Assembly (NCBI GenBank): GCA_934660865.1
Contig: CAKUIA010000024.1
Location: forward strand, 1-19,052
Reading direction: 5' to 3'
DNA length: 19,052 bases
Source: an uncultured Opitutales bacterium
GTDB lineage: Bacteria > Verrucomicrobiota > Verrucomicrobiia > Opitutales > Intestinicryptomonadaceae
The number at the start of each line of letters is the position of its first letter. The first letter of the stretch is position 1. The notes beneath the pieces are model-generated. The model was not told where the DNA came from, made no database searches, and saw only the letters and a program-made list of their open reading frames with translations. Made by a program: the position numbers and the translations under genes. Below, in pieces: positions 251-9,083 of this stretch.

Positions 251-327
251 TGGAGCGGGCAATGAGTCTCGAACTCACAACCTCGACCTTGGCAAGGTCG
301 CGCTCTAGCCAATTGAGCTATGCCCGC
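251..327 (-). tRNA. tRNA-Gly (anticodon GCC), CCA encoded
   Basis: The minus strand reads GCGGGCA TA GCTC AATTGGCTA GAGC G CGACC TTGCCAA GGTCG AGGTT GTGAG TTCGAGA CTCAT TGCCCGC T CCA. This gives a full cloverleaf with a 7-bp acceptor stem, anticodon loop TT-GCC-AA, TTCGAGA T-loop and discriminator U. Length 77 nt. Confidence 0.93.
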
Positions 328-338
328 AGGTGAAGTAA

Positions 339-378
339 ATTATTCGCCCAATACTGCACATTTATTTTATCGTGTCAA
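339..378 (-). promoter_or_regulatory. Candidate sigma70-type promoter for tRNA-Gly, embedded in the last codons of the upstream CDS
   Basis: The minus strand has a perfect TTGACA (378-373), a 16-nt spacer, then CAGTAT (356-351). An alternative, better -10 (AATAAT, 344-339) has a poor -35. Hexamer matching only. Confidence 0.3.
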
Positions 379-1228
379 GCTCGAAAATGAAATTTTTTCG
401 GAAATTTTCGGGTACGGGGTAAAATCCGTTTTTGTCTATTTCTTTTGCGGTGCTGTCGTTAAGCAATGCCTTTGCAAAAGCCTTAACTTTTTTTGCGTTT
501 TTCGCCTTAAATGCAATGTAAAAGGGCAAATTCATAACATAGTCGTTATTGTGCATGCTTTCGCACGAGGGCAAAACCGAATACAATTTGCCGCCGTCGG
601 CGTTTGTGGCCGAAACGGGGATTGTTTTTGTGCCCTCCATGGGCTTGCCTACAATGGCTATTGTGGAATTGTTGTTTTCGACAAACCTTTTAAGATCGGA
701 TTTATCGTCGATAATGTTTACCCATTCTCCCAAATTGAAGCCCGCAAAAGCCTTGTTTTTGAAAAGTTCTACAACAAGGTTGTCGTGAAGCCCCGTTGTT
801 GCCGCCTGTATGGAGTGCATATTTTTTATGCCGATATTTTGCCATTGGTCGGCCTTTAATTTTGTGCTTTTGCAGAATATGGATTTTAGCTGCTCCATGG
901 AAATCTCCCTGATTGTGTTTACGGGGTTTACAACCACAACCGCGCCCTGGTAGCACAGGGGAATAAGCTTTATGCCTTCAAGAGAGCTTTCGGTGCCGCG
1001 TATTACGGCAACAACGGCCATATCGAGATTGTCGTTCTTTAGCTCTCTAACGGCCGACATAGAGCCGCGCATATCCAACTTTAGCGGTATATTGTCGGTT
1101 TTTGCAACTTCCTGCAGGGGGGCTTGTATGGACGACGCAAGCAGGTCGGAGCCTCCAATGCTTACGCTTTCGGCCGACAGGGTAAGGGTTGCAAAAAGAT
1201 AGAAAAACGCGGTTAAATAAATTCTCAT
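362..1228 (-). CDS. Secreted PstS-family (PBP_like_2) periplasmic substrate-binding domain protein, divergent
   Basis: 288-aa ORF with N-terminal signal peptide MRIYLTAFFYLFATLTLSA/ES. Its layout parallels PstS/PhoT binding proteins: SIGGSDLL..., GAVVVVNPVNTIREISMEQLKSIF...WQNIG, ...IAIVG. The canonical phosphate-binding GGGSGTG segment is replaced by MRGSMSA. No pstCAB genes are nearby. Confidence 0.6.
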   Translation of the reverse strand: MRIYLTAFFYLFATLTLSAESVSIGGSDLLASSIQAPLQEVAKTDNIPLKLDMRGSMSAVRELKNDNLDMAVVAVIRGTESSLEGIKLIPLCYQGAVVVVNPVNTIREISMEQLKSIFCKSTKLKADQWQNIGIKNMHSIQAATTGLHDNLVVELFKNKAFAGFNLGEWVNIIDDKSDLKRFVENNNSTIAIVGKPMEGTKTIPVSATNADGGKLYSVLPSCESMHNNDYVMNLPFYIAFKAKNAKKVKAFAKALLNDSTAKEIDKNGFYPVPENFRKNFIFELDTIK

Positions 1229-1382: not shown

Positions 1383-1835
1383 ATGAACGATAAAACTCTA
1401 GAATTAGTATGCGCGCAATTTGCACAAAAGCGCGAATATCTGGTTCCGGCGCTGCAAACGGTTCAGGAGAAAGACGGCTATATTTCTCCCGAAGCCGTAG
1501 AACGGCTTGCAGTGCATTTCGGAATCACCAAAAGCGACATTTATTCGGTGGCGAGTTTTTACGCCCAATTTAAATTTGTAAAGCCCGGCAAACACGTTGT
1601 TAAGGTTTGCAGGGGCACCGCCTGCCACGTTAAAGGCTCGGCAAACCTGTTGGCGGCAATAGAGCAAAGATTGGGCATAAAAGAGGGCGAAACAACCCCC
1701 GACGGCCTTGTTTCGATAGAGCGCGTTGCGTGCTTGGGCGCCTGCGCGCTGGCCCCCGCCATTGTTATAGACAACCAGGTTTACGCAAGGGTAAGCTTGC
1801 CACAACTTGAAAAGCTTTTGGGAGAGTTGAAGTAA
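1383..1835 (+). CDS. nuoE: NuoE/HydC/HndA-type thioredoxin-like [2Fe-2S] subunit (24-kDa family)
   Basis: 150 aa with the family's four-Cys pattern, VCRGTACHVKG ... VACLGACALAPAIVID. Its stop overlaps the next start (TAATG at 1833-1837). Confidence 0.85.
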   Translation: MNDKTLELVCAQFAQKREYLVPALQTVQEKDGYISPEAVERLAVHFGITKSDIYSVASFYAQFKFVKPGKHVVKVCRGTACHVKGSANLLAAIEQRLGIKEGETTPDGLVSIERVACLGACALAPAIVIDNQVYARVSLPQLEKLLGELK

Positions 1836-3688
1836 TGAAAGTTTTAAGCGATAAGATTATTGCCGAAAGCAAAAAGGCATGGGAGGATTTTTCGTCTCCC
1901 AAAAAGGCGAGGGTTATGGTGGGCGCCGCAACCTGCGGAAGAGCCGCCGGCGCGCTCGACATTATTGCGGAATTTAAAAAGCAGCTGCAAAAGGCGGGCA
2001 TTGCCGACAAGGTAGAGCTTGTGGAAACGGGCTGCATAGGCCTTTGCTATGCCGAGCCTTTAGTTGAGGTTCGCGCCGAAAATGCCGACCCAATTTTATA
2101 CGGCAAAGTTGCCGTTGCCGATGTCGAAAAGCTTGTTTTCGGGCACCTGCAAAAGGGCGAAATTTTAAAGGGCAAGGCCTTGGCCGTTATGGGCGAAAAC
2201 GCCGTAGACGGCATAGTTCCCTTTAAAGAGCACGAAATGATAAAGCTGCAAAAGCGCTTTGTACTTAGAAACACCGGGCTTATAAACCCCGAATCTTTCG
2301 AGCACTATGTGGCGCGCGGCGGGTATAGTGGGCTGCAAAACGCACTGAATTTAACCCCCGAAGACCTTATCGAGCAGATGAAAAAAAGCGGTTTGCGCGG
2401 CCGCGGCGGCGCGGGCTTTTTAACGGGGCTAAAATGGAGCTTTGCGGCGGCTTCGAAAGCCGACGAAAAATATATTATATGCAACGCCGACGAGGGCGAC
2501 CCCGGGGCCTTTATGGACAGATCCGTTTTAGAGGGCGACCCGCACTCGGTAATAGAGGGCCTTATGATAGGCGCGTATGCGATAGGCTCGCATTGCGGCT
2601 ACATATATGTGCGTTCGGAGTACCCTCTGGCGATTGAGCGCCTGCAAATTGCAATAGCCCAAGCCGAAGAGGCGGGCATTTTAAAGAATAAAGACGGCTA
2701 CTATTTTGAAGTTAGGATAAAAAAGGGCGCCGGTGCCTTCGTTTGCGGCGAAGAAACTTCGCTTATGGGCTCCATAGAGGGCGTTAGGGCAATGCCCAGG
2801 CCTAAGCCGCCTTTCCCCGCAAACAGGGGATTGTTCGGCAAGCCCACAAACATAAACAATGTCGAAACACTGGCTGCGGTATCGTCGATAATGCGCGAGG
2901 GCGCCGACTATTACGCCTCTCTTGGCACCGAAAAAAGCAAGGGCACAAAAACCTTTTCGCTTGCGGGCAAAATAGCCAGAACGGGCCTGATAGAAGTTGA
3001 AATGGGCATAAAGCTTGGCGACATTATCAACAAAATAGGAGGGGGCTGCGCCGACGGCAAAAAGTTTAAGGCCGTGCAAACCGGCGGGCCTTCGGGCGGC
3101 TGTCTTGTTCCCGAGCATTTGGATATTTCGGTAGACTACGAAAGCTTGGGAGCGGTCGGCTCCATTATGGGGTCGGGCGGCATGGTTGTAATGAACGAAG
3201 ACTCGTGCATGGTTGAGGTTGCAAAGTTCTTCCTTTCGTTTACCGAAAACGAGTCGTGCGGCAAGTGCGTTCCGTGCAGAATGGGCACGCAGCATGCCTT
3301 GAGGATTCTCGAAAAGATAACTTCGGGCGAAGCTACCATGGAGGATTTGGATACGCTCGAGAAAATCGCATTTACAATGAAACAGTCGTCGTTATGCGGC
3401 CTGGGGCAAACGGCTCCAAACCCGATTTTAACTACGCTAAGGTATTTTAAGGACGAGTACATCGCCCATATTAGAGACAAAAAATGCCCCGCAAAAGCGT
3501 GCAGAAAACTTGTGCACTTTAAGATTAATCCCGAAAAGTGCAAGAGCTGCTCGATGTGCTCGAGAGCCTGCCCGACGGGCGCAGCCCACGGCGAAAGGGG
3601 CAAGCCCTATTGCATAGACTCGGCAAAATGTATATCGTGTTCGGCATGCTATCAGGCGTGCAAATTCTCGGCGGTGGAAAGGTACTAA
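1835..3688 (+). CDS. nuoF: NuoF/HydB/HndC-type NAD(H)- and FMN-binding Fe-S subunit (51-kDa family) with extra N- and C-terminal Fe-S domains
   Basis: 617 aa. Motifs: GRGGAGFLTGLKW (FMN site), ICNADEGDPGAF (NADH site), ESCGKCVPCRMG (N3-type 4Fe-4S). The C-terminal 2x[4Fe-4S] ferredoxin has CKSCSMCSRACP and CISCSACYQACK. The N-terminal thioredoxin-like domain shows only three Cys (C34, C67, C71). Confidence 0.9.
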   Translation: MKVLSDKIIAESKKAWEDFSSPKKARVMVGAATCGRAAGALDIIAEFKKQLQKAGIADKVELVETGCIGLCYAEPLVEVRAENADPILYGKVAVADVEKLVFGHLQKGEILKGKALAVMGENAVDGIVPFKEHEMIKLQKRFVLRNTGLINPESFEHYVARGGYSGLQNALNLTPEDLIEQMKKSGLRGRGGAGFLTGLKWSFAAASKADEKYIICNADEGDPGAFMDRSVLEGDPHSVIEGLMIGAYAIGSHCGYIYVRSEYPLAIERLQIAIAQAEEAGILKNKDGYYFEVRIKKGAGAFVCGEETSLMGSIEGVRAMPRPKPPFPANRGLFGKPTNINNVETLAAVSSIMREGADYYASLGTEKSKGTKTFSLAGKIARTGLIEVEMGIKLGDIINKIGGGCADGKKFKAVQTGGPSGGCLVPEHLDISVDYESLGAVGSIMGSGGMVVMNEDSCMVEVAKFFLSFTENESCGKCVPCRMGTQHALRILEKITSGEATMEDLDTLEKIAFTMKQSSLCGLGQTAPNPILTTLRYFKDEYIAHIRDKKCPAKACRKLVHFKINPEKCKSCSMCSRACPTGAAHGERGKPYCIDSAKCISCSACYQACKFSAVERY

Positions 3689-3694
3689 TATATT

Positions 3695-6076
3695 ATGGCA
3701 AAATTTAATTTGACTATCGACGGCGTTATTGTTGAGGCCCAAACGGGCATGACCGTTTTGCAGGCGGCCAGAAACGCGGGCTTGTTCATTCCCTCGCTTT
3801 GCGCGCACGAAGAGCTTGAACCCTACGGGGCCTGCAGGCTTTGCGTTGTGGAAATAGAAAAGATGAGGGGAACTCCCACGGCATGCACAACTCCGGCCGC
3901 CGAGGGAATGGTTGTAAGGACAAACACCGAGCAGCTGCAAAAACAGCGCCAAAGAACGCTTGAGCTTTTGATGAGTGCGCACCCGTCGCCGTGTTTTTCG
4001 TGCGATTCGCGTTTGGACTGCGAAAGCGTAAAGAAAACCCCCACAAAGTCGGGCGTGTCCACAAGGTGCGGCGCGTGCTCGAACCGCCCTGTTTGCGGGC
4101 TAAGGGGCATAGCAATGGGCTCGTTTACAAGGGAAATGAATTTGCCCGTAAGCTACGACATTTCGAAAATCGACAAGCGCGACCCGTTTATAGACCGCGA
4201 CTACAACCTTTGCGTATTGTGCGGCATTTGCGTTAGAACGTGCGCAAAAATGCACAACGGCAAACCCGCAATTTCGATTTCAAGCCGCGGCAAGTTTGCA
4301 AAGGTAACAAGCGCATTCGACAACCCGTGGAGCAACGAGGAATGTGTGTTCTGCGGAGCCTGCGTAGACGAGTGCCCCACCGGTTCGCTTACCGACAGGT
4401 GGTCGAAGTGGTACGGAGCCGCCGAAAGCGAGTGCATTGGCAACTGCGAATTTTGCGGCAAAAAGTGCGAGCTTAAATTGAAGATTAAAGAGGGGCGCTT
4501 AATGGGCACTTCGGCAAAGGCCTTAAAGCCCGAAAACGCATTGTGCGTAAACGGCAAGTTTGTATATCCGCAGGTTGTAAACGCAAAGCACAGGCTTGGC
4601 CTTAGCTCGGTTTTGCGCGGGCGCGACCTTGTTCCCGCCGAAGAATTGGAACTTGTAGAATATGTTGTCGAAATTCTTAAAAACTCGCAAAACAAGCTTT
4701 TGATTTTGGCAAGCTCCATTGTTTGCGACAATGTAAAGTCGCTGCTTAAAGGCTTGGCCGAATTTAAAGGCGGGCATGTCGAATTTATAGAGTCGGGCTC
4801 GAAAGAACTGCCAAACGAGCTTGCCGAACGCATTAAAAACGGCGAGTTTAAAGACGTATTTTCGGTCGGCGACTATATCCCCGAAAATTTGGCCGACAGC
4901 TTCGAAAACATCTTTGTTGCCGACTTCCTTTCCGCCAAAATACAGAAAAAGGCAAAGGCGGTTATTGCCGCACGCGTGCTAGACGAGCGCAACGGCAAAA
5001 TAAGGCCCTTCGGCAAATCGCTTAATTTCGAGGTTGTGCTAAGCTGCATTTGCTCGTCGTTGGGCGTAAAGGGCGCCATTATCGAGAAGAAAGCGCCTCC
5101 CGCCCACAGCAGGCCCTATTCGCACGGCATTTTGCCGAGATACTTCTTCGGGCACAGCCTTGTGGAATTGGTGCCCGACTTGGAGCTTTTGGGCTTCGAA
5201 AAAGCCCCCGAAAAGGAGGACAATGTCGACAAATTCAACGCATGCCAAGTGCTTGAAAACGTTATGCTTGCCCCCAATTTCCATGCGCTAAAGATAAAGG
5301 CGCCCGAAATTGCAAAATACGCAAAGGCGGGGCAGTTTGCGGTATTGCTGGCAAACAGGCACAGCGAGCGCTCGCCCTTTACAATTATAGACTGGAACGC
5401 CCAAGAAGGGTGGATAAGGTTTATAATAGAGGAAGTCGGCCGTTCCAGCGCGGAATTGGGCGCAAAGAAGGCGGGCGACTATATTGCGCACGTAAGCGGT
5501 CCTTTGGGAACTCCCATAGACTTAAGCGAAGTAAAAAGCACCGATTCGGTTCTGCTTAGCGGCGGCTGCTACGGAATAGGGGCGGTATATCCCATAGCAA
5601 GAGAGCTTAAAAAATTGGGCGCAAAAGTTGCGGTTTCAATCGAGGCTTCAAGCTCGTACCTTCTTTATTTCGAAAACGAACTAAAATCGGTTTGCGACGA
5701 GCTTATAGTCTCTACCCGAGACGGCACAAAAGGCCTTAAGGGCGGCTGTGCCGATGTCATGAAATCGCGCAAAGACCGGTTCGATATGTTTGTTTCGATA
5801 GGCTGCGTGTTTATGATGAAACAGGCTTCGAAAGTTGCCGCCGAAATACAAAAGAAAACCCTGTGCGCGCTAAACCCGATTATGGTAGACGGCACGGGTA
5901 TGTGCGGAGCCTGCCGCGTAAGCGTGGGCGGCGAGGTAAAGTTTGCCTGTGTAGACGGGCCTTTCTTCGACCTAAAGGGCGTAGATTTCGACGAGCTTGC
6001 AAAGCGCAGAAGCGCGTATACGCTGCTGGAAGTAGACGCAATGCCGCGCCACCACAACGGAAAGTGCCACCAATAA
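3695..6076 (+). CDS. Fusion protein: NuoG/HydA-like N-terminal Fe-S module + Molybdop_Fe4S4-type domain with a truncated downstream domain + NfnA/SudB/PyrK-like FAD/NAD(P)-binding [2Fe-2S] module
   Basis: 793 aa. Plant-type 2Fe-2S: C36, C47, C50, C64. His-ligated cluster: H96-x3-C100-x2-C103-x5-C109. Two ferredoxin motifs: C173-x2-C-x2-C-x3-C and C217-x2-C-x2-C-x3-CP. Molybdop_Fe4S4-type pattern C251-x2-C254-x3-C258...C284 (LCVNGKF). About 230 aa with no recognisable cofactor motifs. From about aa 514 an NfnA-like module: LAPNFHALKIKAPEIAKYAKAGQFAVL, RSPFTI (FAD), LLSGGCYGIGA (NAD(P)), and C-terminal MVDGTGMCGACRV...FACVDGPFF (2Fe-2S). Confidence 0.8.
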   Translation: MAKFNLTIDGVIVEAQTGMTVLQAARNAGLFIPSLCAHEELEPYGACRLCVVEIEKMRGTPTACTTPAAEGMVVRTNTEQLQKQRQRTLELLMSAHPSPCFSCDSRLDCESVKKTPTKSGVSTRCGACSNRPVCGLRGIAMGSFTREMNLPVSYDISKIDKRDPFIDRDYNLCVLCGICVRTCAKMHNGKPAISISSRGKFAKVTSAFDNPWSNEECVFCGACVDECPTGSLTDRWSKWYGAAESECIGNCEFCGKKCELKLKIKEGRLMGTSAKALKPENALCVNGKFVYPQVVNAKHRLGLSSVLRGRDLVPAEELELVEYVVEILKNSQNKLLILASSIVCDNVKSLLKGLAEFKGGHVEFIESGSKELPNELAERIKNGEFKDVFSVGDYIPENLADSFENIFVADFLSAKIQKKAKAVIAARVLDERNGKIRPFGKSLNFEVVLSCICSSLGVKGAIIEKKAPPAHSRPYSHGILPRYFFGHSLVELVPDLELLGFEKAPEKEDNVDKFNACQVLENVMLAPNFHALKIKAPEIAKYAKAGQFAVLLANRHSERSPFTIIDWNAQEGWIRFIIEEVGRSSAELGAKKAGDYIAHVSGPLGTPIDLSEVKSTDSVLLSGGCYGIGAVYPIARELKKLGAKVAVSIEASSSYLLYFENELKSVCDELIVSTRDGTKGLKGGCADVMKSRKDRFDMFVSIGCVFMMKQASKVAAEIQKKTLCALNPIMVDGTGMCGACRVSVGGEVKFACVDGPFFDLKGVDFDELAKRRSAYTLLEVDAMPRHHNGKCHQ

Positions 6077-6094
6077 ACTTAAACGGAAAAGCAA

Positions 6095-7519
6095 ATGGAC
6101 AATAACCAAAATCCACAAAGAAAAATAAAGGCTTCGGGGCTTCCGAGAACGGCAATGCCCGAGCAAGATCCCAAGCGCAGGGCCACAAATTTCGAGGAAG
6201 TTCCCTACGGGTTTTCGTTTCAAGACGCCGTAAACGAGGCTACGCGCTGCCTGCAATGCCCCAAGCCCAGATGCGTTTCGGGCTGTCCGGTAAACATAAA
6301 CATACCCGCTTTCATACACGAAATCGCGCTTGAAAACCCGAAGGGCGCCGCCGAAAAGCTTAAGCTGCAAACGGCATTGCCCGCGGTATGCGGCAGGGTT
6401 TGCCCGCAGGAAAACCAGTGCGAGGGCCACTGTGTTTTGGGCATAAAGGGCAAGCCCGTGGCCATCGGCTCGCTGGAGCGCTTTGCCGCCGACTATGTGC
6501 GCGAAAACAATATAGAGGAACTGCCCCAAAAAGCGCCGTCTACGGGCAAGAAAGTTGCAATTATCGGCTGCGGGCCCGCAGGCATTACGGCTGCGGCAAC
6601 CCTTGCAATTTCGGGGCACGAGGTAGAGGTTTTCGAGGCTTTGCACCTGCCAGGCGGCGTGCTTAGCTACGGCATTCCGCAGTTTAGGCTTCCCAAAAGC
6701 ATTGTAATGTACGAGGTCGAGCAAATAAAAAAGCTGGGCGTAAAAGTGCATTTAGACTATCTTGTAGGCCGAATGAAAACCGTAGAAGAGCTTATAAAAG
6801 ACCTTAAGTTCGATGCCGTGTTTATAGGTTCGGGCGCAGGTTTGCCGCAGTTTATGCACATCGAGGGCGAAAGCAGCGTGGGCGTATTTTCGGCAAACGA
6901 ATTCCTTACAAGGTTTAACCTTATGAAGGCCTATAATTTCCCCGAATTCGGTACAACGCCCATAAGGGCAAAGCACATAGTAACCGTAGGCGGCGGCAAC
7001 GTTGCAATGGACTCGTGCAGAACGGCGCTAAGAATAGGGGCAAAGTCTACTTTGGTATACAGAAGGGCAAGAGAGCAAATGCCCGCGCGCGCCGAAGAGG
7101 TTCACCACGCCGAGCAAGAGGGCGTAAACTTCAGCCTTTTAACCAATCCCAAAAGGATTATCGCCGACGAACACGGCAGGGTAAAGGCGATAGAGTGCAT
7201 AAAAATGGAGCTTAGCGAGCCCGACGCTTCGGGCAGGCAAAAGCCCGTCGAAATTCCCGGTAGCGAGTTCCAAATAGAGTGCGACGCCGTTGTAATTTCC
7301 ATCGGCAACAAGCCAAACCCGCTTATACCGATGACATGCAAAAACCTTGCTACAACGCCAAAAGGCACCTTGCAGGTAGACCCGGAAACATTGCAGACCT
7401 CTATGGAGGGCGTATATGCGGGAGGCGACGTTGTAAGCGGAGCTGCAACCGTAATTAGCGCAATGGGGCAGGCAAAAAAGGCCTCGGCAAACATAAACGC
7501 ATATTTGGCTTCTAAATAA
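6095..7519 (+). CDS. nfnB: NfnB/SudA-type NADPH-dependent oxidoreductase (GltD / homotetrameric-'glutamate synthase' family)
   Basis: 474 aa. N-terminal Fe-S motifs CLQCPKPRCVSGCPVNINIPAFI and LPAVCGRVCPQENQCEGHCVLG. Dinucleotide folds KVAIIGCGPAGITAA and VTVGGGNVAMDSCRTA. C-terminal VYAGGDVVSGAATVI. It lies 18 nt downstream of the NfnA-containing fusion gene. Confidence 0.88.
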   Translation: MDNNQNPQRKIKASGLPRTAMPEQDPKRRATNFEEVPYGFSFQDAVNEATRCLQCPKPRCVSGCPVNINIPAFIHEIALENPKGAAEKLKLQTALPAVCGRVCPQENQCEGHCVLGIKGKPVAIGSLERFAADYVRENNIEELPQKAPSTGKKVAIIGCGPAGITAAATLAISGHEVEVFEALHLPGGVLSYGIPQFRLPKSIVMYEVEQIKKLGVKVHLDYLVGRMKTVEELIKDLKFDAVFIGSGAGLPQFMHIEGESSVGVFSANEFLTRFNLMKAYNFPEFGTTPIRAKHIVTVGGGNVAMDSCRTALRIGAKSTLVYRRAREQMPARAEEVHHAEQEGVNFSLLTNPKRIIADEHGRVKAIECIKMELSEPDASGRQKPVEIPGSEFQIECDAVVISIGNKPNPLIPMTCKNLATTPKGTLQVDPETLQTSMEGVYAGGDVVSGAATVISAMGQAKKASANINAYLASK

Positions 7520-8293
7520 ATGCGCATACTAATCAGCAACGACGACGGCATTGGTTCGCCGTTTTTAAGGAGCACGGCAGCCGCCCTTTCCGAATTGGGC
7601 GAAGTTAAAATTGTAGTTCCCTCGAAAGAGCAAAGTTGGATAGGCAGGGCGTTTTCGCGCCATGCCGAGCTTAAGCACGAAAGGGTAAGCGACTTTTACG
7701 GCTTCGACTGCCACACCATAAGCGGAACGCCGTCGGACTGCGTAAACATTGCAATAAACCACTTGTACGAGCCCAATGCCAAGCCCGATATTGTGTTTTC
7801 GGGCATAAACATAGGGCACAACATAGCGTTTCCGCTTATACTAAGCTCGGGAACATTCGCCGCGGCGGTAGAGGGTGCGGGGCATTTAATACCGTCGTTT
7901 GCGGTGTCTTTCCAGCTAAGGAGCGAGTTTTACGAAATGTGCAGAATAAGGCACCAAAGCTCGCCCGATTTAGACCGCGAACTGGGCGTAGTCTGCGAAA
8001 ATTGCGCCGAATTTGTAGGCTCGGTAATGCAGCGCAAAGACGAGATTAAAAAGGGCGACGTTTTCAATATAAACTATCCCTCCGAATACGACGGCTCGCC
8101 CGTTTGTATGTGCAAAACCGCAAACATAAAAATGGAAAGCTTCTACAAAAAGAACGAAAACGGCAACTATGTGTTTAAGTATAAGCTCGGTATGAAGCAA
8201 AAAAGCGAAAACTTCGAGCCTACCGACATAGACATGCTTTCCAATTCAAAGGCGTGCTGCTCGAGAATAAATATATTCGAATTTGCAAGATAG
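7520..8293 (+). CDS. surE: 5'/3'-nucleotidase SurE
   Basis: 257 aa starting MRILISNDDGIGSPFL (the SurE hallmark xILxSNDDG), plus SGINxGxN (FSGINIGHN). The ATG directly abuts the nfnB stop (TAAATG). Confidence 0.9.
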   Translation: MRILISNDDGIGSPFLRSTAAALSELGEVKIVVPSKEQSWIGRAFSRHAELKHERVSDFYGFDCHTISGTPSDCVNIAINHLYEPNAKPDIVFSGINIGHNIAFPLILSSGTFAAAVEGAGHLIPSFAVSFQLRSEFYEMCRIRHQSSPDLDRELGVVCENCAEFVGSVMQRKDEIKKGDVFNINYPSEYDGSPVCMCKTANIKMESFYKKNENGNYVFKYKLGMKQKSENFEPTDIDMLSNSKACCSRINIFEFAR

Positions 8294-9030
8294 TTTTTGT
8301 GAAAGCTTTACTAAAGGGCTTTTTGGATTTGTTGTTTGCCCGCAGGTGTTTGGCGTGCGGCAAACTAAACCCGAAAGGTCCTTTTTTGTATCTGTGCAAA
8401 GCCTGCGCCGAAACGCTTGATTTTAATTTAAACGCAAGGTGCCTGCGCTGTTGCGAACCTTTGATTGGTTCTGACAAAGACAGCACCGACACTTGCGCAA
8501 AATGCTTCGGCACAAAATTTTACTTTGAAGAAAGCCGATGTGCCTGCCTTTACAAAGGGGCCGTCTGCGAGTTGGTAAAAGAGCTAAAATACCGAAAAGG
8601 CCTGTATGTTTTGCCCGACATTGCAAAGATTTTCGCGCAAAATCCCCAATATTTCGATTTTGTAGACAACGCCTATTTAGTTGCAGTTCCCCTGCACGGC
8701 AAAAGGCTTAAAAAGCGCGGCTACAACCAAAGCCGCAAAATAGCCGAAATTTTGGCAAGGCAAAATCCGTCTATTAGGGGCGTTTTGGATTTGCTTGTAA
8801 GAGTAAAAGACACCACAACCCAAACAATGCTAGACCGCCAAAACAGGGTGCAAAATGTAATGAACGCATTTGCCGTAAACCCGAAAGCCGAATGCGATAA
8901 AACCGCAAAACTGGTTTTGCTGGACGATGTTATGACAACGGGAGCCACCCTTAACGAGTGCGCAAAAACTTTGAAAAAAGCGGGCTATAAAAACGTGTCG
9001 GCAATGTGCTTTGCAAAAAGGCCGCTTTAA
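8254..9030 (+). CDS. comF: ComF family protein (phosphoribosyltransferase-domain, ComFC-like)
   Basis: N-terminal double zinc-ribbon Cys pairs: CLACG...CKAC...CLRCC...CAKC. C-terminal PRTase motif VLLDDVMTTGATLNE. The ATG at 8254 overlaps surE by 40 nt. An in-frame GTG at 8299 (VKALLKGFLDLLF...) just after the surE stop is an equally plausible start. Confidence 0.8.
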   Translation: MLLENKYIRICKIVFVKALLKGFLDLLFARRCLACGKLNPKGPFLYLCKACAETLDFNLNARCLRCCEPLIGSDKDSTDTCAKCFGTKFYFEESRCACLYKGAVCELVKELKYRKGLYVLPDIAKIFAQNPQYFDFVDNAYLVAVPLHGKRLKKRGYNQSRKIAEILARQNPSIRGVLDLLVRVKDTTTQTMLDRQNRVQNVMNAFAVNPKAECDKTAKLVLLDDVMTTGATLNECAKTLKKAGYKNVSAMCFAKRPL

Positions 9031-9056: not shown

Positions 9057-9083
9057 CCCGCCTTAAAAAGATTTTAGGGCGGG
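9057..9083. terminator. Bidirectional rho-independent terminator between the convergent comF and TPR genes
   Basis: CCCGCCTTAAAA-AGA-TTTTAGGGCGGG: a 12-bp stem (one G-U pair) with a 3-nt loop, an A-rich left flank (AAATAAAA) and a T-rich right flank (CAATTTGTTTATTTT). Confidence 0.7.

Follow-up and report, generated by a model that had tools for sequence, protein, structure and literature searches.

Along a 19,052-nucleotide stretch of contig CAKUIA010000024.1 from an uncultured Opitutales bacterium (the window, below), four redox genes on the forward strand join parts of two kinds of transhydrogenase: a BfuC-BfuB pair, a BfuA::NfnS fusion and an NfnL. The question is whether they encode one enzyme and how electrons would pass through it. 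NfnSL and NfnABC are regarded as two unrelated kinds (Xiao 2025), are described as nearly mutually exclusive in genomes (Xiao 2025, Kremp 2020), and Kremp 2020 asks if a third complex exists in organisms lacking both; Clostridium drakei and Treponema primitia reportedly have neither. The hybrid locus physically merges these two solutions, NfnSL and the Bfu-type NfnABC, which the literature treats as separate. A preliminary description, made from the nucleotide sequence alone, had proposed NuoE/HydC-like, NuoF/HydB-like, NuoG::NfnA and NfnB/GltD-like products, and Pfam and Protein Data Bank matches agreed with each of these identities. The gene layout was exactly as it had given it: bfuC and bfuB overlap by a stop/start TAATG (1833-1837), a gap of 6 nucleotides (nt; 3689-3694) separates bfuB from the fusion gene, and a gap of 18 nt (6077-6094) separates the latter from nfnL (Table 1). 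The Pfam domains that it had anticipated (2Fe-2S_thioredx, Complex1_51K, NADH_4Fe-4S, Fer2_4, NADH-G_4Fe-4S_3, Fer4, DHODB_Fe-S_bind, Fer4_20 and Pyr_redox_2) were detected, except for Molybdop_Fe4S4, which fell below the cut-off.

There is strong evidence from sequence comparison that the four genes encode one conserved complex and are not adjacent by chance. More than 100 homologue clusters (90% identity) of the fusion protein were recovered at 98-100% coverage and 40-58% identity, from Opitutales/Verrucomicrobia, Desulfobulbus, Desulfogranum, Desulfonatronum and Omnitrophica; those that carry an annotation are named only 'sulfide/dihydroorotate dehydrogenase-like FAD/NAD-binding protein' or 'NAD(P)H-flavin reductase/ferredoxin'. 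A genome scan using one genome per species gave at least 80 loci, the closest relatives (54-58% identity) lying outside this locus set. By BLAST at the level of open reading frames (ORFs), the order BfuC-BfuB-BfuA-NfnS-NfnL was kept across at least 8 phylum-level groups, also where BfuA and NfnS are split; the arrangement occurs in Verrucomicrobiota, Desulfobulbia, Planctomycetota, Hydrogenedentes, Nitrospirales, Bacteroidales, Aminicenantes and metagenome-assembled genomes of Eubacteriales. Fused BfuA::NfnS genes were found in loci L001, L002, L003, L005, L007, L008 and L012 and, as a lone gene on a 2.8-kb contig, in L009, together representing Desulfobulbus, Deltaproteobacteria, Hydrogenedentes, Opitutales and Nitrospirales. 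Split genes were found in Planctomycetota/Phycisphaerales (L004, L006), Bacteroidales (L014, L016, L017, L022), Desulfocapsaceae (L015), Aminicenantes (L018, L019, L041) and Eubacteriales (L020, L025, L035). In the Desulfobacteraceae loci L010 and L011, bfuB stands after nfnL (L011) or is missing from a short contig. The preliminary description had suggested a search for the same synteny and fusion; both recur across phyla, a distribution that goes well beyond what it had described.

Operon adjacency alone would permit a BfuABC-like module and an NfnAB to be independent enzymes simply encoded side by side. However, BfuA and NfnS are covalently joined in proteins whose domain content varies, different phyla share the gene order, and signature residues co-occur in BfuA and NfnS (see below). 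Because such fusions are found together with synteny across phyla, BfuA and NfnS are expected to act together physically, and the fusion effectively refutes the idea of two separate enzymes, which we consider extremely improbable.

The first two genes supply the Bfu core. BfuC matched Pfam 2Fe-2S_thioredx (E-value 2e-46), NfnC of Caldicellulosiruptor saccharolyticus (Csac; 9n5u_C, 1e-40) and NiFe-HydC (7t2r_C, 3e-36), and has the standard four ligands of the C1 [2Fe-2S] cluster (Cys 76, 81, 117 and 121). BfuB matched Complex1_51K (4e-45), SLBB, NADH_4Fe-4S (2e-33) and two C-terminal Fer4 domains (563-612), with a weak 2Fe-2S_thioredx match at its N-terminus, and it could be aligned end to end with NiFe-HydB (7t2r_B, 6.5e-231), Csac NfnB (9n5u_B, 3e-215) and 8oh5_B (1e-201), all three from bifurcating enzymes with solved structures. 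The domain for flavin mononucleotide (FMN) and NAD(H) is present, as are the ligands of the B1 cluster (Cys 475, 478, 481 and 521). Bifurcating BfuB proteins are separated from non-bifurcating NuoF homologues by a GGPSG loop, an N-terminal B2 site and a C-terminal dicluster domain (Schut 2022, Xiao 2025). The window protein has a GGPSGG loop at 417-422 (the alignment to 7t2r_B/9n5u_B covers TGGPSGGC), a thioredoxin-like N-terminal B2 site with three Cys (34, 67 and 71) and a C-terminal 2x[4Fe-4S] ferredoxin-like domain (B3/B4) at 569-609, besides a Cys pair at 551/556 (KCPAKAC) corresponding to B5-site residues. The B2 site of Csac NfnB, which likewise has three Cys, binds Zn (Csac NfnABC paper). 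All the sequence features of the Bfu family were therefore found, namely the BfuB core with its extras, C1 in BfuC and A1 and A2 in BfuA, and BfuBC has the appearance of a complete core of the bifurcating type.

Variants of this core were seen in other loci. BfuB is ~1045-1078 residues long in Phycisphaerales/Planctomycetota L004 (925-4059) and L006 (3772-6906) and in Hydrogenedentes L005 (3750-6983). The L004 protein has a GltD/NfnL-like module (Fer4_20 and Pyr_redox_2 by Pfam) in place of the C-terminal ferredoxin-like domain, and those of L005 and L006 are alike by BLAST. Such complexes would hold two NfnL-type flavin modules and would possibly be devoid of the BfuB ferredoxin port. In Desulfobacteraceae, the BfuC of L010 (34-1068) carries an N-terminal response-regulator receiver domain (Pfam Response_reg, 6.5e-28), which suggests control of the complex by phosphorylation, and the BfuC of L011 (142-1200) has an N-terminal extension of the same length.

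The third gene encodes the fusion protein, which matched Fer2_4 (2e-19), NADH-G_4Fe-4S_3, a Fer4 dicluster and DHODB_Fe-S_bind (9e-11) in Pfam; the Molybdop_Fe4S4 match was below the cut-off, yet all four of its Cys are invariant. Residues 3-296 matched FdsA (6tg9_A, 8e-49) and NiFe-Bfu HydA (7t2r_A, 1e-39). In an alignment of 60 homologues, the ligands of all the expected clusters are invariant: C36, C47, C50 and C64 for the A1 [2Fe-2S] cluster, H96, C100, C103 and C109 for the His-ligated A2 cluster, C173-183 and C217-227 for A3/A4, and C251, C254, C258 and C284 for A5. An AlphaFold2 (AF2) model built from these 60 homologues had a mean predicted local distance difference test score (pLDDT) of 84 and a predicted template modelling (TM) score of 0.81. 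Foldseek confirmed the domain folds, matching the N-terminal half to FdsA, NiFe-HydA and NuoG and the C-terminal domain to the P. furiosus NfnI-S chain 5jca_S (TM 0.89).

About 15 residues after the His-ligated A2 motif, BfuA bears an additional motif, T-R-C125-G-A-C128-S-N-R-P-V-C134-x-L-R (C-x2-C-x5-C), to which the preliminary description had not drawn attention. It duplicates the A2 motif without the His and holds no fourth ligand of its own. The motif is present in 28/28 NfnS-linked BfuAs, in all clades, and its position corresponds to a gap or alignment break in the FdsA, HydA, NiFe-HydA and StnC chains. It was also found in 133 of the 135 closest NuoG-like representatives at 50% identity that have the His-cluster motif (P0133-P0268), so that the family of BfuA proteins with this motif is, judging from sequence, large and diverse. 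The AF2 confidence is lowest at this point (pLDDT 51-58), and AF2 cannot place clusters. His487, in the FRGH element of the linker, was considered as a fourth ligand and rejected, being Asn in Bacteroidales-type split BfuAs, while the element is absent in clade III. In this linker G486 is invariant and H487 is present in at least 90% of the sequences; split BfuAs have a similar element at their C-terminus, where Asn replaces His in Bacteroidales.

Between the BfuA clusters and the linker, the molybdopterin domain is cut to ~170 residues (297-465). PF00384 is among the precomputed matches of many fusion homologues, and the Foldseek alignments to 6tg9_A and 7t30_A reach ~450-500 columns. In split relatives the domain is full-size (PF00384 and PF01568). 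A working formate-dehydrogenase domain was considered for these full-size relatives and rejected, the catalytic Cys/Sec-His and Arg motifs being absent except in Methanothrix (E. coli FdhF as the reference). Since these motifs are absent even in the full-size split relatives, the remnant is probably a non-catalytic scaffold, as in NuoG or Csac NfnA. It also seems dispensable for the link between BfuA and NfnS, because fusions among the representatives at 50% identity occur with a full-length molybdopterin-domain match (P0124, 1079 residues; P0126, 1023 residues) and with none (P0122, 636 residues); further forms have ~800-840 residues, like the window protein.

The remainder of the fusion is an NfnS. 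Residues 518-781 matched P. furiosus NfnI-S (5jca_S, 3e-63) and T. maritima NfnA (4ylf_A, 2.5e-57), with 38-41% identity to NfnS/NfnA by Foldseek. The preliminary description had called this module a complete NfnA. This holds for the motif binding flavin adenine dinucleotide (FAD), kept as SERSPFT (557-563; ERxPxT type), and for the Asp/Cys3 site of the [2Fe-2S] cluster (D732, C737, C740 and C752). It does not hold for the NAD(H) motifs, which are changed in 24/24 Bfu-linked NfnS and in 0/54 stand-alone ones. In this comparison 24 Bfu-linked sequences were aligned with 54 stand-alone sequences, including 5jca_S and 4ylf_A. At residue 625, 24/24 linked proteins have Cys where 54/54 stand-alone ones have Gly, and at residue 704 Cys (24/24) stands against Pro (54/54). 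Instead of GGG[VIL]G[VITA]A the Gly-rich loop thus reads GGC[YF]G[IV][GA], GC is found in place of GP, and the strand motif IGAR[TS]K is replaced. The window protein reads GGC625YG (nt 5561-5575) and IGC704 (nt 5798-5806), and so does not have the canonical NfnS NAD motif (GGG[VIL]G with GP). NfnS belongs to the FNR superfamily, in which the Gly-rich and GP loops hold the pyrophosphate and nicotinamide of NAD(P)H. We infer that the linked NfnS has lost or repurposed its NAD(H) pocket. A C-terminal Cys/His tail of NfnS was considered as a source of missing cluster ligands and rejected, as many stand-alone NfnS also have one and many linked NfnS do not.

These changes bear on the arrangement first proposed for the locus, with two NADH sites (the NuoF FMN and the NfnS FAD), one NADPH site and two bifurcation-competent flavin sites. 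The FNR-like fold, the FAD motif, the [2Fe-2S] site and the level of identity to NfnS/NfnA speak in its favour, as does the unchanged G-G-x-x-G spacing of the Gly-rich loop. Against this, the replacement of Gly625 by Cys, with a bulky Tyr or Phe adjoining it, and of Pro704 by Cys is absolutely specific to Bfu-linked proteins, IGAR(T/S)K is replaced, and a second NADH site would be functionally redundant with that of BfuB. The second NADH site at the NfnA FAD is therefore doubtful, the pocket motifs being remodelled in every Bfu-linked NfnS, and we regard this arrangement as improbable. A precedent is the P. furiosus NfnII/Xfn, whose small subunit has a divergent NAD domain and which shows no NAD+-dependent activity. 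Xfn (5vj7) is an NfnSL homologue for which a different high-potential partner is implied; unlike the hybrid, it is a stand-alone heterodimer with GAYTG/VGP, without added Cys or a Bfu partner.

NfnL, encoded by the fourth gene, is a genuine subunit of the NfnSL type. It matched Fer4_20 (1e-41) and Pyr_redox_2 (2e-36) in Pfam, T. maritima NfnB 4ylf_B (7e-151, ~60% identical) and 5jca_L (2e-141), whereas its matches to the NfnL-like domain of Stn/NfnABC reached only 1e-77 to 1e-94; NCBIfam TIGR01316 scored 586 bits, above its cut-off. Both [4Fe-4S] motifs are present, RCx2Cx4Cx3CPV and GRVCPQENQCEGHC (GRVCPQExQC type, CPQE at 103), and the CPQExQCE motif is kept. The Arg in contact with flavin N5 of the bifurcating site lies in FRLP (197-200); the NADPH motifs are GGGNVAMD and VYRR (321; the 2'-phosphate motif). 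No position specific to linked proteins, for instance on the ferredoxin-docking surface, was found in NfnL even at relaxed thresholds. It is therefore NfnS and BfuA, and not NfnL, that show adaptation to the Bfu partner, since the signature residues are in these two and NfnL has none.

Canonical NfnS/NfnL pairs (GGGVG, GP), encoded on the opposite strand and lying 1-2 kb downstream from the hybrid operon, were detected in the Bacteroidales/Bacteroidota loci L016 (12481-14862, minus strand) and L022 (9797-12307, minus strand). In L017 only a stand-alone NfnL is visible, at the contig end (12375-13844, minus strand). Hybrid and canonical NfnSL thus coexist in L016 and L022, and the hybrid is not redundant. 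In a neighbour-joining tree the linked NfnLs form clades of their own, apart from the canonical NfnSL adjoining the hybrid in L016 and L022.

The closest known systems can be compared with the hybrid feature by feature. Stn/NfnABC (Type 1 Bfu; Sporomusa ovata 8oh5, Caldicellulosiruptor saccharolyticus 9n5u, Thermococcus sibiricus) share with it the BfuC and BfuB bifurcating core, a NuoG/Fdh-like BfuA with a degenerate pterin domain, an NADP(H)-binding flavin module of the NfnL type and the expected substrates NADP(H), NAD(H) and ferredoxin. They differ in having three subunits, an NfnL-like domain inside BfuA, a non-bifurcating FAD and one Lys-ligated cluster, and no NfnS; the literature thus agrees with the preliminary description on the absence of NfnS from these enzymes. 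The hybrid has a separate NfnL of the NfnSL type, with the Glu-type motif, an NfnS on the C-terminus of BfuA and the extra C-x2-C-x5-C, and so departs from the Stn/NfnABC architecture. With NfnSL/NfnAB (T. maritima 4ylf, P. furiosus NfnI 5jca) it has in common the NfnL motifs, the NfnS fold, ERxPxT and Asp/Cys3. The canonical enzyme is, however, a self-sufficient heterodimer whose NfnS binds NAD(H), whereas the hybrid NfnS forms one polypeptide with BfuA, shares an operon with BfuBC and carries GGCYG/IGC (0/54 stand-alone). NiFe-HydABCSL (Type 3 Bfu, 7t2r) has the closest solved BfuB, and the non-catalytic C-terminal domain of its BfuA docks extra subunits that deliver electrons of a third substrate; these are a NiFe-hydrogenase pair and not NfnS/NfnL. 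The class II benzoyl-CoA reductase Bam[(BC)2DEFGHI]2 is the only described complex in which a second bifurcation module is linked to one of the Bfu type (BamGHI), with confurcation and bifurcation in sequence, and is a precedent for two coupling modules in one complex. Its second module is of the HdrA type and drives a tungsten site, while that of the hybrid is of the NfnSL type, with substrates that are probably only pyridine nucleotides and ferredoxin.

The arrangement had been put forward as one without a known description. Consistently, neither a BfuA::NfnS fusion nor a BfuCBA-NfnSL operon was found described in the searchable, freely accessible literature, by full-text search or in Schut 2022, Liang 2019, Kremp 2020, Xiao 2025 and the Csac NfnABC paper, and the hybrid fits none of the Nfn patterns A-D of Liang 2019. 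Among the BfuB clades of Schut 2022, 17 have no assignment and some 'Nfn' BfuBs are from Bacteroidetes (clade 53); hybrid loci may have been silently binned as 'Nfn' or among the 17 unassigned clades. The hybrid is well supported as a real, conserved enzyme of the Bfu/Nfn kind.

How its parts would work together can be proposed with less assurance. The scheme that we favour, though we would give it slightly less than an even chance, is a single soluble NfnSL-Bfu complex in which NfnS serves as a relay and NfnL and BfuBC are coupled in series. The BfuBC core, with its FMN, NAD(H) site and ferredoxin-binding C-terminus, would be joined through the BfuA wire to NfnS and NfnL. NADP(H) would react at the NfnL FAD, NAD(H) only at the BfuB FMN and ferredoxin at B3/B4. 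The relay would run from the NfnL FAD through the NfnS [2Fe-2S] cluster, the NfnS FAD (S-FAD) and the BfuA clusters to B1, FMN and C1 of BfuBC, in either direction, the transfer between S-FAD and BfuA probably passing through the family-specific extra Cys motif. The NfnS branch would thereby have the BfuA wire, instead of NAD+, as its partner. As NfnL is unchanged relative to stand-alone enzymes, its two [4Fe-4S] clusters most likely still exchange electrons with ferredoxin, and a ferredoxin reaction at NfnL would couple the flavin site of this subunit in series with the Bfu flavobicluster.

The direction of flow was considered using the physiological potentials of Schut 2022 (NAD -280 mV, NADP -380 mV, ferredoxin -500 mV). 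From these we computed ~-260 mV for the NfnS branch of a bifurcating NfnL and ~-390 mV for the BfuA input, so that BfuBC would confurcate NADH and reduced ferredoxin and pass the electrons on to NfnS. In this downhill direction NfnL would add ferredoxin electrons to those coming from NfnS and reduce NADP+. The predicted stoichiometry is NADH + 6 reduced ferredoxins (one electron each) + 4 NADP+, against NADH + 2 reduced ferredoxins + 2 NADP+ for canonical Nfn, and the mean donor potential would be -445 mV as against -390 mV. The enzyme would then be a strongly driven, ferredoxin-rich NADP+ reductase, which would explain why canonical NfnSL is kept beside the hybrid in some genomes.

Several points weigh against such a series coupling. 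It would lose ~130 mV on one branch and looks wasteful. The contact between the extra motif and the NfnS pocket is putative, AF2 confidence being low at residues 110-135, and the Gly-to-Cys and Pro-to-Cys changes do not prove that NAD(H) binding is lost. Moreover, an Aminicenantes scaffold (L042, 6805-9324) encodes a signature-type NfnS (GGCFG) and an NfnL, as stop-to-stop ORFs overlapping in different frames, with no Bfu genes within 7 kb; perhaps the genes for the hybrid's partners lie apart from it in some genomes, or there may be different partners for this subtype of NfnS.

The main rival is a single bifurcation as in Stn, in which NfnS/NfnL would be an NADPH-dehydrogenase input, the BfuA wire would receive both electrons of the NfnL FAD, through one branch or through the two, only BfuBC would bifurcate, and the stoichiometry would be that of canonical Nfn/Stn. 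Characterised Nfn-Bfu enzymes do work in this way, with a non-bifurcating FAD, and by our calculation the NADPH couple at -380 mV fits the BfuA input at ~-390 mV, giving a reversible reaction without waste. In Stn/NfnABC, however, a GltD-like domain alone suffices, whereas here NfnS was kept and rewired in every clade. The NfnL retains ~60% identity to bifurcating NfnB, with its N5 Arg, a cluster motif of the Glu type and no linked-specific change, and the presence of canonical NfnSL beside the hybrid in L016 and L022 (NfnL in L017) argues for a different function. We therefore hold this single-site scheme to be rather unlikely, if still a serious competitor to the series coupling.

A more specific proposal makes the NfnS pocket an Fe-S junction, in which a new cluster next to S-FAD would be held by C125, C128 and C134 of BfuA and by one or both of the NfnS residues C625 and C704. 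The two coupling sites would again be in series, with about NADH + 6 reduced ferredoxins + 4 NADP+ and an equilibrium near -445 mV. In reverse, the enzyme would deliver electrons far below the ferredoxin potential, and the same interface would couple NfnSL to formate dehydrogenase in Methanothrix. This junction is speculative and more probably wrong than right; if true, it would define a third type of Nfn. In Methanothrix, loci L063 (573-7482), L040 (2-10692) and L013 (4594-10271) encode a NuoG-type protein with the extra C-x2-C-x5-C and a signature-type NfnS (CGCFG / HGC). In L040 and L063 the NuoG-type protein keeps the catalytic CARxCH and RGQNNVQG and is thus FdhA-like, an NfnL is also encoded, and no BfuBC genes were seen on the contig. 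These loci may represent a formate-linked NfnSL system, and may overlap with the F420-Bfu of Schut 2022.

The NfnS/NfnL module could also serve a third substrate other than NADP(H), or another partner, of the polysulfide/sulfide-dehydrogenase type, of the glutamate-synthase type or encoded elsewhere. P. furiosus NfnI also reduces polysulfide, NfnII/Xfn has another high-potential partner, the NCBIfam label for NfnL is 'NADPH-dependent glutamate synthase', and the Methanothrix signature pair of NfnS and NfnL adjoins a catalytic FdhA-type protein. The VYRR 2'-phosphate motif and the whole NfnL sequence nevertheless match bifurcating NfnB, the molybdopterin domain of the fusion is truncated, and the window holds no other redox gene among its housekeeping neighbours. 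A third substrate hence has little probability. As the preliminary description had stated, no hydrogenase or formate-dehydrogenase gene or catalytic domain was found by Pfam in the window.

If the two sites do act in series, the hybrid would join class II benzoyl-CoA reductase as the second natural case in which bifurcation modules are coupled hierarchically. It would be a much simpler one, being soluble, built of four subunits and using pyridine nucleotides and ferredoxin, and attractive for mechanistic work. It would change the modelled NADPH/NADH/ferredoxin balances in Verrucomicrobiota, Desulfobulbia, Planctomycetota, Bacteroidales and other anaerobes, in whose genomes the genes at present bear the labels NuoE, NuoF, 'sulfide/dihydroorotate dehydrogenase-like protein' and 'glutamate synthase'.

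Table 1. Features of the redox operon and of its downstream flank (positions in the window; aa, amino acids).
Feature	Position	Strand	Basis or remark
bfuC, NuoE/HydC-like [2Fe-2S] subunit	1383-1835	+	150 aa; Pfam, structure matches
bfuB, bifurcating-type NuoF/HydB subunit	1835-3688	+	617 aa; Pfam, structure matches
BfuA(NuoG-like)::NfnS fusion gene	3695-6076	+	Pfam, Protein Data Bank sequence matches, AF2/Foldseek
bfuA part of the fusion, residues 1-296	3695-4582	+	Pfam; matches to 6tg9_A, 7t2r_A
Extra Cys motif 'AX', candidate additional Fe-S site	4061-4105	+	invariant in fusion family
Molybdopterin-oxidoreductase remnant, residues 297-465	4583-5089	+	PF00384 in homologues, Foldseek
Linker, residues 466-517	5090-5245	+	conserved F-R-G-H-x-L-x-D-x-V-P-x-L element
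nfnS-like domain, residues 518-793	5246-6076	+	matches to 5jca_S (4e-64), 4ylf_A (3e-58); Foldseek
nfnL, NfnB/NfnL-type subunit, 474 aa	6095-7519	+	matches to 4ylf_B, 5jca_L; TIGR01316
surE	7520-8293	+	Pfam SurE 7e-42; start abuts nfnL stop (TAAATG)
comF-like phosphoribosyltransferase gene	8254-9030	+	Pfam DZR_2, Pribosyltran; overlaps surE end
First strong intrinsic-terminator-like hairpin 3' of the operon	9057-9083	+	12-bp stem, then T-rich tail

The redox genes are the only ones of their kind in the window, where the neighbours are surE, the comF-like gene, dus, hemA and ksgA. With 88% identity between its HemA and that of an Opitutales metagenome-assembled genome, the source belongs to Verrucomicrobiota/Opitutales. 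They continue into surE and the comF-like gene without a terminator between them, a feature to which attention had not been drawn before, and may share a transcript with these housekeeping genes, which are not counted as parts of the enzyme. Scans of the window for sigma-70 promoters and terminators gave numbers of sites not above those of shuffled sequences. Since the total of terminator-like sites is no higher than in shuffles, reading the downstream hairpin as the operon terminator is only suggestive. Upstream, a 179-residue ORF (320-859, plus strand) without a Pfam match lies inside a gene for a PBP_like_2 periplasmic binding protein (362-1228, minus strand) and is probably spurious. On the sibling contig L081, an ISL3-family transposase gene stands just past the binding-protein gene.

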